Source: Nitrosopumilus sp. (GTDB lineage Archaea; Thermoproteota; Nitrososphaeria; Nitrososphaerales; Nitrosopumilaceae). From it: 64,000 nt of DNA. The stretch's first letter is position 1. Every line of letters begins with the position of its first letter. Location: contig OZ245003.1 in assembly GCA_965223425.1 (NCBI GenBank), forward strand, positions 864,001 through 928,000, read 5' to 3'. Shown here in pieces: positions 18,376-64,000 of the stretch. Both the position numbers and the translations under genes were made by a program. The notes under the pieces were generated by a model. The model saw nothing but the letters and a program-made list of their open reading frames with translations, had not been told where the DNA came from and did no database searches.

Positions 18376-18518
18376 TTCAAAAGTGCATTTAGTGCATTAA
18401 AAAAATGCATTTAGTGCACTTCAAAAAGTGCATTTAGTACATTTAGTACATTAAAAAAATACACTAAGTGCATTTAGTGCACTTCAAAAAGTGCATTTAG
18501 TACATTTAGTGCATTTAT
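18376..18518. repeat. Array of 9-bp GT(G/A)CATTTA repeats with TTCAAAAA linkers
   Basis: About ten near-identical copies immediately upstream of the AbrB-like gene. Confidence 0.85.
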
Positions 18519-53302: not shown

Positions 53303-54340
53303 ATGAAAACAAAACAGATCTATCTAGGCAAATATCAAGCTGGTGATCATGAGGTTAGCTCAACTGGCAAGGGTCTAGTCTGCAGCTGTGGTTTTAATGG
53401 TGACTGTGAATACATCAAGGCCACGTTGGAATTTTTAAAAAAAGCGGAATTTGGCTTGGGCTTTAGAATCATGGAACGCTCAAAACTTCAACTGTGCAAA
53501 TTCTGTAACTCTGGAAATATTGTAAAGGCTGGATTAAAGAAGAACAAAACCAAAACCATGCAGATGTTCAAGTGTAATGACTGCAAGAAAAGGTTTACTG
53601 CTAATTTTGGTTTTGAAAATACTAGGTATGATGACAGTATTATTACGAGTGCCTTGCAGATGTATTTCTCTAAAATGTCAGTACGTAGAATTTCTGAATT
53701 ATTTGAAATGCAGGGAATCAAAGTATCATATCAAGCCATTTACAACTGGATTGAAAAATACTCTAAAATGGCTTCTGTGTATCTAAATGGAATAGTACCA
53801 CATGCAGGCAACTGGTTCAGGGCAGACGAGGTATGGATAAAGATTGCAGGAAAACAAAATTATCTGTTTGCTAGTATGGATGATGATTCTAGATTTTGGT
53901 TGGCCTCTGATGTTGCAGACAACAAGTTTCAACATAATGCAGACAGCCTATTACAGTTAACCAAACTACAAGCTGGTAAGACCCCTAGAAACTTCATTAC
54001 TGATGGATTGCCAGCCTACATGAAATCATCCAAGAAAGTGTTTGGAAAAAAGACAAACCATGTAAGGCATATCCACTTGGCAGGAAAGAGAGACAAAGAT
54101 AACAACAACAAGATGGAACGACTGAACGGTGAAATAAGAGATCGTGAAAAAGTGTTTAGAGGTCTCAAAAAGATGGATACGCCTGTATTGGATGGCATGA
54201 GGGTTTACTATAATTTCACCAAAAAGCATGGTTCCTTAGATGGCAAGACCCCAGCAGAAGCATCAAAGATTGAGGTTGAGGGTACTAACAAGTGGAAGAC
54301 AATCATACAGAATGCCAGTCTGAACAAGGCTACTGTGTGA
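53303..54340 (+). CDS. IS6-family DDE transposase with Zn ribbon
   Basis: CKFC...CNDC, WFRADE, FITDGLPAY, NNKMERLN. Confidence 0.9.
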   Translation: MKTKQIYLGKYQAGDHEVSSTGKGLVCSCGFNGDCEYIKATLEFLKKAEFGLGFRIMERSKLQLCKFCNSGNIVKAGLKKNKTKTMQMFKCNDCKKRFTANFGFENTRYDDSIITSALQMYFSKMSVRRISELFEMQGIKVSYQAIYNWIEKYSKMASVYLNGIVPHAGNWFRADEVWIKIAGKQNYLFASMDDDSRFWLASDVADNKFQHNADSLLQLTKLQAGKTPRNFITDGLPAYMKSSKKVFGKKTNHVRHIHLAGKRDKDNNNKMERLNGEIRDREKVFRGLKKMDTPVLDGMRVYYNFTKKHGSLDGKTPAEASKIEVEGTNKWKTIIQNASLNKATV

Positions 54341-60966: not shown

Positions 60967-61048
60967 CACCCCGTTGTTGCCAACGGTAGGCAACAACAGG
61001 GCAATAAACCACCCCGTTGTTGCCAACAGTAGGCAACAACAGGGCAAT
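60967..61048. repeat. Two tandem 39-bp palindromic repeats
   Basis: caccccgttgttgccaac(g/a)gtaggcaacaacagggcaat at 60967 and 61010. Confidence 0.9.
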
Positions 61049-62064: not shown

Positions 62065-62656
62065 TATTACCGTACTGTACGGTACAGATCGATAAAAGCC
62101 TTATGTGCAGTTTGCCGTTTGCAAATGTCCCAATTGATGCAGAACAAAGAATAGAGGCAAGACCCCATGCATTCTAGATCGGATTTTGTGAGTTATCCAC
62201 TGACATGCATACCAAGCCAGCATTTCATTCAAGCTCAGATGGACTGGCAGAATATTCGAAAAATCCAAAAACGCCAAAAGAGATAATCAAGGGTTGAGAA
62301 AAATTCCGCATCCCTGACTTGCACTTTTGGTATTTTTTATTTGCAGTTCCCGTCTGAGAAAACAATATCCTGGCTGACTTGAAATTTTGGGCCTTTTATT
62401 TGAGGGCATATTTGATGCCGTGTCCAAAAATCCAAAACTGTCATTGTTTGAGGAGCTTGCAAGGGAGATGCTTGAAAATATCTGCAAGAGCCGCAGACCC
62501 TGCCATATGCCTGGCAGCTAGGACAGGCTACTGCCTTTTAAAATACTGCAGATAGCATGTCATGGATGAAACAGTAACAATTTCAAAAAAGTCATTCCAA
62601 GCCATACAGGAATTCATTATGCAGTGTGTAAAGAAGATAGATGAGATAGAAGAGGA

Positions 62657-62765
62657 CCTGCAGTGGCCCAAAGACATTACATGAGATTGCAAGCTCATGC
62701 AATGGCCATGCCAATTTCGATCATTGCGCCTGCAGTAGCTCAAAGACATTACATGAGATTGCAAA
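62657..62765 (+). CRISPR. CRISPR-like mini-array (37-bp repeat, 35-bp spacer, 37-bp repeat)
   Basis: cctgcagt(g/a)gc(c/t)caaagacattacatgagattgcaa(g/a) twice; 3' ATTGCAAG end; no cas genes in the window. Confidence 0.5.
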
Positions 62766-62902
62766 GGGCCACACCTCCAAAAATATTTTTTGCTGATTAT
62801 GATGTGGTTGCAAGTATTATTGTAAATGAGATCCCTGGCAGTCAATTTGCCCCAAACTGCATCTGTCTGCAGAAAATTCTGATACGAACCGTGCAGATAT
62901 AA

Positions 62903-64000
62903 TCAGATCGTATCTTCCTTGCAGACAGATGCATCCATATTTTTTATCATATGCAAGATTCCTGTTTCCTCTAGTTTGTCTCTAAGATCCCTGAGCTCCT
63001 TTAAATCCTGCATCATCTTTACGTTTGCAACAGACTGGAGCTTTTGATTCTGGCGTGCCTCCTTCTTGGTTGTTTCAAGCTCAGTCTTTAGACGAATGTC
63101 ATCAGATATTGTAAGATATGGGATTGCCTTTTGATATTCTGGGAATCGCTCAAAGTCTTCTTCTACGTATCTCTCATAGTTTTTCTCAAGGCCTACCCTG
63201 TGGCCCATCATGTCTTCCTTGTCTAGATAATTTACCTTTGCACGGCGCAACATCGTGTTGAAATATTTTCTAAAGCCATGATCAAGTTTTACTGCATGTC
63301 TCTTTCGTCCGGGTGGCAGTGGCAGTCTCAATCCTGCCTCCCTTGCAAGCATATCTACTCTTTTTCTTACTCCTTTTTGCATTAATCTCTTCATGCAGAT
63401 TTGATCAGTTGATCTTAACAATGGATTGTTAGGTTTTGGATATTCGGTGAGGTCGTTTTTCCACTTTTCTCTGTACGCCCACAAATATCCACATGCCTCC
63501 GGTGTGATAAATGTCCAGTAGCTTTCAGGGTCTCCGCGATACACCAGCAGTGCCGCTCCTTTGAATGTATCATCCTCGTGTCTGAAAAAAACTACATCCT
63601 GCCACGTAAAGTAATCCCATGACTCTAGTCTAAACCCTGCAGAAGAAAACATGGTCAAAATTACCTTGTCTGTAAGGTCATGTGCAAGTGACAGCATCTT
63701 TTGGATCTCTTCTCTGGTGTACGCCCTGTCTTGAGAGTTTACAGGTCTTGGATACAGGTGATACAAACGCTTCCAATGCAGTGCGGCATCGTTTGTATCA
63801 AGTAAAACTTTGATTGGCTTGACATAGTTTGGAATTGTGTTGGGACTAATACTGCCCTGTTCTACTAGTTTGACATAATGTTTGATGTATTCAGAAATAA
63901 TGTTGGTACCAATTATGCTGTGAGACTTGCACAACAACACAAAACATTCGGCTTGTGACTCTACAGTCTCATTTGGAATTTTACTGCTCAATTCCTCGTA
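62903..64000 (-). CDS. Tyrosine recombinase/integrase, 5' end beyond the window
   Basis: SAGFRLE, HGFRKYF, MMGH, catalytic Tyr region NYER; frame stays open to the window edge. Confidence 0.9.
   Translation of the reverse strand, partial: YEELSSKIPNETVESQAECFVLLCKSHSIIGTNIISEYIKHYVKLVEQGSISPNTIPNYVKPIKVLLDTNDAALHWKRLYHLYPRPVNSQDRAYTREEIQKMLSLAHDLTDKVILTMFSSAGFRLESWDYFTWQDVVFFRHEDDTFKGAALLVYRGDPESYWTFITPEACGYLWAYREKWKNDLTEYPKPNNPLLRSTDQICMKRLMQKGVRKRVDMLAREAGLRLPLPPGRKRHAVKLDHGFRKYFNTMLRRAKVNYLDKEDMMGHRVGLEKNYERYVEEDFERFPEYQKAIPYLTISDDIRLKTELETTKKEARQNQKLQSVANVKMMQDLKELRDLRDKLEETGILHMIKNMDASVCKEDTI

Follow-up and report, generated by a model that had tools for sequence, protein, structure and literature searches.

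A 72-nt repeat-insert-repeat unit in a Nitrosopumilus chromosome as a probable product of off-target CRISPR spacer integration

A short repeat-insert-repeat unit located near an integrase-like gene in the chromosome of a Nitrosopumilus sp. is, with high probability, an older product of off-target spacer integration by Cas1-Cas2 (a "neo-CRISPR") and a probably neutral scar. Taken alone, this unit is of little consequence and a function is probably absent; the interesting part is a genome-wide set of about 30 units. The unit lies in a 64,000-nt stretch of DNA (the window, G000:C1:864001-928000), which belongs to a genome of 2.64 Mb in two contigs. Because this genome encodes an archaeal AmoA (PF12942, E = 4e-118), the host is an ammonia-oxidising archaeon. 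The second contig (C2, 123 kb) has a GC content of 47% versus 41% for the chromosome (C1), and it may be a foreign contig in the assembly.

The unit and its surroundings

The unit consists of two direct repeats of 36 nt that are identical at 34 of 36 positions and lie 72 nt apart from start to start. Copy 1, which represents the duplicated target, occupies 62657..62692 of the window, copy 2 occupies 62729..62764, and the stretch between them is a 36-nt insert, or "spacer," at 62693..62728. The copies differ at 62665 (G/A) and 62668 (C/T), and none of 100 shuffles of the window gave a repeat match (0/100). The original prediction had described 37-bp repeats, identical at 34 of 37 positions, around a 35-bp spacer. 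These repeats are real and correspond to the 34/36 core plus one mismatched end base, and the 35-bp spacer is the insert at 62693-62728 minus one base. A hairpin that had been drawn within the repeat also exists, but its stability is nothing special (-4.3 kcal/mol, z = 0.16, for copy 1; -7.1 kcal/mol, z = -1.47, for copy 2). The accompanying remark that the window holds no cas genes stands for cas1, the one gene that the check covered, as both genomic cas1 matches fall outside the window.

The unit is present in identical form in contigs from two other studies (runs X3 and X5) and in those of run X1; run X6 yielded part of the stretch only. Neither an empty-site form nor a form with an extra spacer was present in the contigs of runs X1, X3, X5, and X6. 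The segment of the window from 62100 to 62910 had no real match in 60 relatives, and a survey of 29 loci around related integrases returned no match by blastn, tblastx, or fuzzy repeat search. An empty site of the locus at 62657-62765 was found in none of the relatives, integrase loci, collection scans, or run contigs. The junction bases at this locus are C and T, not G.

Outside the unit, a 362-aa integrase-like ORF is located on the minus strand at 62903..63991, with its stop about 140 nt away. This ORF, entered as 361 aa in the searches, had no Pfam match at E ≤ 1e-3. The H..R, GH, and Y motifs near its C terminus make a tyrosine recombinase-like protein plausible, and the integrase-like family is present in 207 of 401 genomes of the order, a count that takes in the unpublished genomes G300, G144, and G290. 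To the left of the unit are genes for orphan secreted-looking proteins, followed farther left by those for a TraG/VirD4-like ATPase, a T2SSE ATPase, and a T2SSF protein. Since genes of these conjugation types occur together with a recombinase-like ORF nearby, an integrated conjugative element is a fair description of the region, and the earlier placement of the unit next to an integrase and within an integrative and conjugative element (ICE) is plausible.

Copy 1 overlaps the last 9 codons and the stop of a 40-aa ORF on the plus strand (62562..62684). This small ORF is an orphan, as protein searches matched only itself and one 2693-aa repeat protein, and neither it nor a 105-aa ORF on the minus strand had a Pfam match. 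Upstream of the 40-aa ORF, an AT-rich TATA-like box at 62536-62545 may act as a promoter. In the centroid fold of 62640-62780 (plus strand), a left stem arm (GAGG ... GTGGCCC, 62652..62669) that begins before copy 1 and continues within it pairs with a right arm (GGGCCAC. CCTC, 62766..62779) just after copy 2, and a T-run at 62786-62791 follows the right arm. Both mismatches between the repeat copies fall in the GTGGCCC stem segment of copy 2. Before the insertion, the stem-loop would have closed directly downstream of the 40-aa ORF, without the 72 extra bases.

Several other repeats were seen in and around the window. The N-terminal half of the integrase gene and about 285 nt upstream of it (window 63491-64000 and on, to C1:928273) have an inverted copy at C1:2410911-2411694 with 96.7% identity, and partial, more diverged copies of the same segment occur at C1:463574-465590. 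Just outside the window, C1:931211-931330 contains a repeat of about 100 nt that has a MITE-like look and more than 25 chromosomal copies at 90 to 99% identity. Within the window, a 43-nt tandem repeat at 60967-61048 (1.9 copies, 97% identical) contains a hairpin and separates two minus-strand genes for orphan secreted-looking proteins, and a nested tandem repeat of a AGTGCATTT-type word with periods of 9, 22, 32, and 63 lies at 18379-18517. In the noncoding stretch to the left of the unit, 62311-62405 holds two similar motifs of about 33 nt (CTGACTTG..TTTGG..TTTTATTTG), some 60 nt apart, which could be binding sites or promoters.

Source of the insert and the host CRISPR system

The best match to the insert was in the host chromosome, where positions corresponding to 62696-62730 of the window are identical at 31 of 35 bases to the plus strand of G000:C1:1388372-1388406 (E = 4e-6). 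The earlier observation that no perfect protospacer was seen by eye therefore holds. This source site lies inside a 188-aa minus-strand ORF that encodes a nucleoside 2-deoxyribosyltransferase (PF05014, E = 3e-25), and the gene is flanked by IS elements. The homology between insert and source ends at the insert borders. Read in the frame of the gene, one of the four differences is synonymous and three are conservative (E/E, I/L, I/V, and A/V). This pattern fits continued evolution of the source gene under selection, or an insert that came from a close homologue instead. A search of 401 genomes of the order gave no match to the insert at up to three mismatches, and words taken from the insert had 0 matches in viral contigs. 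Competition was one of the two uses named in the original prediction, which proposed to compare the spacer with viruses and ICEs; a spacer aimed at a rival element found no support, the only match being the deoxyribosyltransferase gene of the host.

The host encodes a complete type I-B system (cas4, cas2, cas1, a candidate cas8b, cas7, cas5, cas3, and cas6b), which adjoins CRISPR array A1 at a distance of about 430 kb from the unit. The adaptation module is intact, with cas1 identified at 216 bits, cas2 by PF09827 (E = 3e-15), and cas4 by TIGR00372. Array A1 (C1:1357299-1362540) has 74 identical repeats of 36 nt, spacers of 34 to 38 nt, and a period of 70 to 74 nt, and A2, the other array, consists of 7 repeats, also 36 nt long, with spacers of 35 to 38 nt. 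At 36 + 36 = 72 nt, the unit under study has the dimensions of a host CRISPR unit: its duplication equals the host repeat in length, and its insert falls inside the host spacer range.

Some further features of the CRISPR region were recorded. Among the A1 spacers, one close to the putative leader end is identical at 34/34 positions to a chromosomal site (C1:198216-198249) with TAT upstream, a single case that does not settle the PAM. Such a self-match would mean that interference is inactive, that the PAM does not permit it, or that the matched element is tolerated. One and the same IS5-family element end borders both the trailer side of A1 (C1:1357150-1357300) and the 3' end of the deoxyribosyltransferase gene (L002 1180-1330, equal to C1:1388050-1388200). 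The segment C1:1371000-1394000 is packed with IS copies and also holds fragments of cas1 (L006:17318-17692) and of an additional cas6b (L006:2087-2527).

The repeat of the unit was compared with CRISPR repeats in several ways. Its best ungapped identity is 13/36 to the A1 repeat and 14/36 to the A2 repeat, and 88% and 58% of random genomic windows, respectively, reach as much. No Rfam CRISPR-DR family matched 62300-63000, even at E ≤ 10, whereas the A1 repeats used as a positive control at identical settings matched CRISPR-DR7 with 29.6 bits. A likeness of the repeat end (ATTGCAAG) to the host handle (ATTGAAAC) was considered as a lead and dismissed as chance on the basis of a window-wide control. 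Repeat words had 0 matches in viral contigs, 5 single chance-level matches in genome contigs (the one inspected, L020, falls within an HTH gene of a Nitrosomarinus MAG), and 1 chance-level match in metagenome contigs, in the C terminus of a GTPase-like ORF. Accordingly, no array carrying the repeat of the unit was found in viral, genome, or metagenome contigs by these scans, which used exact words of 18 to 20 nt that diverged relatives would escape. No third copy of the repeat exists in the whole genome, and with two genomic copies only the unit falls short of a bona fide CRISPR array, defined by at least three repeats or a cas-linked repeat. The original prediction was to be given up if no cas-linked array had a similar repeat and the region was a conserved coding duplication; no similar repeat was found in a cas-linked array, but the region is not such a duplication.

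Genome-wide set of units of about 72 nt

The genome was scanned for direct repeats in two copies, using at least 24 of 26 identical bases per window and a spacing of 30 to 160 nt (effectively 38 to 160 nt) and excluding repeats with an internal period, loci at which a third copy occurs, and pairs less than 12 nt apart. Out of 759 raw matches, 62 loci were obtained. A spacing of 71 to 75 nt was seen in 31 of these 62 loci (3 at 71, 13 at 72, 6 at 73, 7 at 74, and 2 at 75), and one more locus had a spacing of 77 nt. Under uniform spacing, about 2.4 loci would be expected at 71 to 75 nt (p = 1.6e-27). Every other spacing had 0 to 2 loci, except 150 nt, which had 5. Loci with spacings of 140 to 160 nt and those with at least three copies were considered as units with two spacers, but turned out to be longer tandem or coding repeats.

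The resulting 32 loci have unrelated "repeats," apart from three that belong to a single repeated element and were counted once, giving 30 events. All 32 are on C1, with 31 of them outside the window, and they are spread over the chromosome, many within genes and IS elements. Examples are the sister units at C1:105005, 168273, 280165, 849893, 1123479, 1303385, 1341215, 2401611, and 2466831, of which the one at C1:849893 is 14 kb short of the start of the window. The repeats appear to be 26 to 46 nt long, and the spacing is 71 to 77 nt throughout. Mean spacing is about 72.7 nt, which is some 1.4 nt more than in A1 (about 71.3 nt) and nearer to A2. Three loci, which have repeats of 26 to 29 nt and inserts without a matched source, could simply be coding repeats.

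In 16 of the 30 events, the insert was matched elsewhere in the genome over 32 to 39 nt with 89 to 100% identity. Four of these matches are 100% identical over 35 to 37 nt, and the sources lie on either strand, in unique genes as well as in IS copies. Inserts are mutually dissimilar, the only matching ones being those of the three copies of the repeated element. No motif that would represent a PAM is shared by the flanks of the 16 source sites, on either side.

For 6 of the 32 loci, which belong to multicopy elements, empty-site paralogues with a single target and no insert were available and allowed duplication and insert to be measured separately. The duplications were 36 to 39 nt and the added length was 71 to 77 nt, with duplication/insert pairs of (36,36), (37,36), (37,about 35), (39,38), (37-38,34-35), and (38,36). 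For example, the unit at G000:C1:280165 has its empty-site paralogue in the window at 54010..54315, inside an IS240-type transposase gene. Some sister units put 24 to 25 in-frame codons into genes that remain open. One such event (C1:2401611) added 75 nt in frame at residues 511-549 of a gene for a 1112-aa helicase of the PLD+SNF2 type. This insertion is absent from all five matching relatives (G440, G436, G178, G181, and G172), in which the alignments split at about residues 510/545. The subject gaps in the two closest orthologues, those of G440 and G436, are only 3 to 12 nt, and four of the five relatives have open frames of 1090 to 1094 aa; the distant G172 does not.

The first base of the duplicated target was G in 23 of 54 junctions, compared with a background of 20.7% (p = 2e-4); these 54 junctions represent 27 events, the three short-repeat loci and all but one copy of the repeated element being left out. 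Target ends of the form GT/AC occurred in 12 of 60 cases versus 5.2% (p = 5e-5), and the A1 repeat likewise starts with GT and ends with AC. As a set, the targets have no excess likeness to the A1 repeat (mean of 14.2/36 versus 14.7 for random windows, p = 0.90), and only the terminal G or GT preference is visible across them.

Origin of the unit and comparison with known systems

We propose that the unit under study was made by the adaptation enzymes of its host. A fragment of about 35 to 36 nt would have been captured from the host's own deoxyribosyltransferase gene or a close homologue of it, and the host type I-B adaptation module, Cas1-Cas2 with Cas4, would have served as the integrator. 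Two staggered strand transfers, 36 bp apart, would have taken place at a non-CRISPR site, in this case a loop region just past a small ORF of the integrated conjugative element. Gap repair would then have duplicated the 36-bp target, producing the repeat-insert-repeat arrangement with its 72-nt period. The event is not recent, given the two mismatches between the copies and the four between insert and source. Cas6b would not be expected to process the duplicated sequence, as this is no CRISPR repeat; a neutral scar is therefore most likely, or at most a "neo-CRISPR" seed.

The geometry of the unit, the source match, the recurrence throughout the genome, the empty sites of sister units, and the intact adaptation module are all observed. 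We infer Cas1-Cas2 as the maker from the footprint, on account of a spacer-length insert, a repeat-length duplication, inserts of self-DNA, G at the attacked bases, and the intact module, and absence of function is likewise inferred. Against this origin stand the lack of an empty site for the locus in the DNA searched, its C and T junction bases, targets that as a set are not repeat-like, source sites with no visible PAM, a mean spacing above that of A1, and the three short-repeat loci. The CRISPR-like reading in the original prediction was correct as to origin, in that the unit has host-unit dimensions and the look of adaptation-enzyme work, but its function as a guide was not supported. The inserts of the set are mostly self-derived and several are perfect, which fits units without a working crRNA, since in a true array perfect self spacers would lead to self-targeting. 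On the scale of the genome, it is likely that the CRISPR adaptation enzymes have acted as an insertional mutagen, with at least 26 to 30 fixed, self-derived off-target integrations, both old and fresh, of about 72 nt each, some of them adding 24 to 25 codons to open genes. If this is true, the chromosome holds an unusually rich natural record of Cas1-Cas2 target choice and prespacer sources without interference selection, and also a pool of seeds for new arrays, the ICE-borne unit among them.

Other origins were weighed against off-target integration. A working mini-CRISPR array or crRNA-like regulator on the conjugative element would use the promoter of the small ORF and the host type I-B Cascade to act on a rival element or on a deoxyribosyltransferase-like gene. 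The neighborhood would suit it, with TraG/VirD4-like and T2SSE/T2SSF genes, the integrase stop about 140 nt away, and an AT-rich TATA-like box upstream, and stand-alone arrays have been published for thaumarchaeal ICEs (PMC6563490). By eye, the last 10 bases of the repeat agree with the A1 repeat end at 8 of 10 positions, and the plus-strand insert is antisense to the mRNA of the matched gene. However, published arrays of mobile genetic elements (MGEs) and ICEs have host-like repeats, whereas the 13 to 14 of 36 identical bases seen here are reached by 58 to 88% of random windows, no CRISPR-DR family matched at E ≤ 10 under conditions where the host repeat matches CRISPR-DR7, and the repeat folds no better than its shuffles. 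The sole match of the insert is a host gene; in one orientation mismatched bases fall on positions 1 and 3 of the insert, and in the other on position 3. Sister units carry perfect self-matches that would make a working guide target its own genome, and about 30 units with unrelated repeats point to a by-product. With a repeat at chance level, no other array carrying it in the exact-word scans, a host-gene insert, and these unrelated units, the ICE-borne guide or CreA-type regulator of the original prediction is not supported, and we judge a working array or regulator very unlikely.

An undescribed Cas-independent process that copies short pieces of the genome, lengthens the site by a total of about 72 nt, and lets the target duplication offset the length of the insert would agree with the lack of a PAM at the sources, with targets that are not CRISPR-repeat-like overall, and with apparent repeats of 26 to 46 nt while the spacing holds at 71 to 77 nt. 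Yet duplications measured from empty sites are 36 to 39 nt and inserts are 34 to 38 nt, with no trade-off between them. The inserts are also diverse and share no hairpin, the geometry is that of the host CRISPR unit, Cas1-Cas2 is intact, and the terminal G matches the repeat ends, all of which leaves such a process improbable. Replication slippage within a gene, giving an ordinary tandem or coding duplication, was suggested by the caveat in the original prediction that the 72-nt period is divisible by three, and one minus-strand frame is indeed open across the unit (the 105-aa ORF; 124 codons from stop to stop). However, a search of about 5.8 billion proteins gave no homologue of this frame, Pfam gave no match either, and a conserved coding duplication is not supported. 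There are only 1.5 units, what follows copy 2 bears no relation to the insert, the unit is absent from the Tandem Repeats Finder output, and the insert is homologous to a distant gene; slippage is accordingly exceedingly improbable.

Under off-target integration by Cas1-Cas2, about 30 events in one wild genome, half with sources and several with empty sites, make a useful natural data set. Questions that it could serve include where an archaeal type I-B integrase lands outside its array, which DNA is captured when interference cannot purge self-spacers, and how genes are reshaped by such insertions. A lesson for annotation concerns two-repeat "mini-arrays": where the geometry is that of the host unit but the repeats are not those of the host, they should not be taken for guides.

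CreTA-type units occur in or beside cas loci or in phages, keep a repeat-like sequence for Cas binding, and match a promoter through a short seed. The unit described here differs in lying about 430 kb from cas, in having no repeat likeness, and in matching its source over the full length within a coding region. It resembles CreA and other crRNA-like regulatory RNAs in being a two-repeat unit with an imperfect cellular match; such RNAs in cas loci are the subject of 10.1101/2023.03.03.530964 and 10.1101/2024.10.29.618823. Mini-arrays on viruses and ICEs that use host Cas proteins (Medvedeva et al. 2019, PMC6858448) are similar in having one spacer, two repeats, a location on an integrated mobile element, and a type I-B host. 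The spacers of such arrays mostly match related elements, whereas here the repeat is unlike both host repeats and the insert matches a host gene. In the MGE mini-arrays and thaumarchaeal ICE arrays described in PMC11656645, PMC8616872, and PMC6563490, the repeats equal those of the host or nearly so.

Among three origins proposed for isolated arrays, PMC13142298 (citing Shmakov et al. 2020, CRISPR J) lists off-target acquisition, and the unit shares with isolated or orphan arrays an array-like form, a location far from cas, and this proposed origin. It differs from them in being one unit only, with a "repeat" that consists of local sequence and does not come from a transferred or orphaned array. 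Closest is the off-target spacer integration reported in Escherichia coli cells over-producing Cas1-Cas2 (Nivala, Shipman & Church 2018, as described in 10.1101/148544 and PMC7054753), and the account in 10.1101/148544 treats the evidence from natural genomes as circumstantial only. In vitro, according to PMC6698737, Pyrococcus furiosus Cas1-Cas2 carries out full-site integration at non-CRISPR sites one repeat length apart, with G preferred. Those P. furiosus sites are repeat-like; the targets here are without overall repeat likeness. The likeness to neo-CRISPR lies in the spacer-length insert, the repeat-length duplication of a non-CRISPR target, attack sites paired at a distance of one repeat, the G preference, the intact module, and the inserts of self-DNA, and the difference is that the events here are natural and fixed at about 30 sites in a wild ammonia-oxidising archaeon, with many sources and several empty sites.
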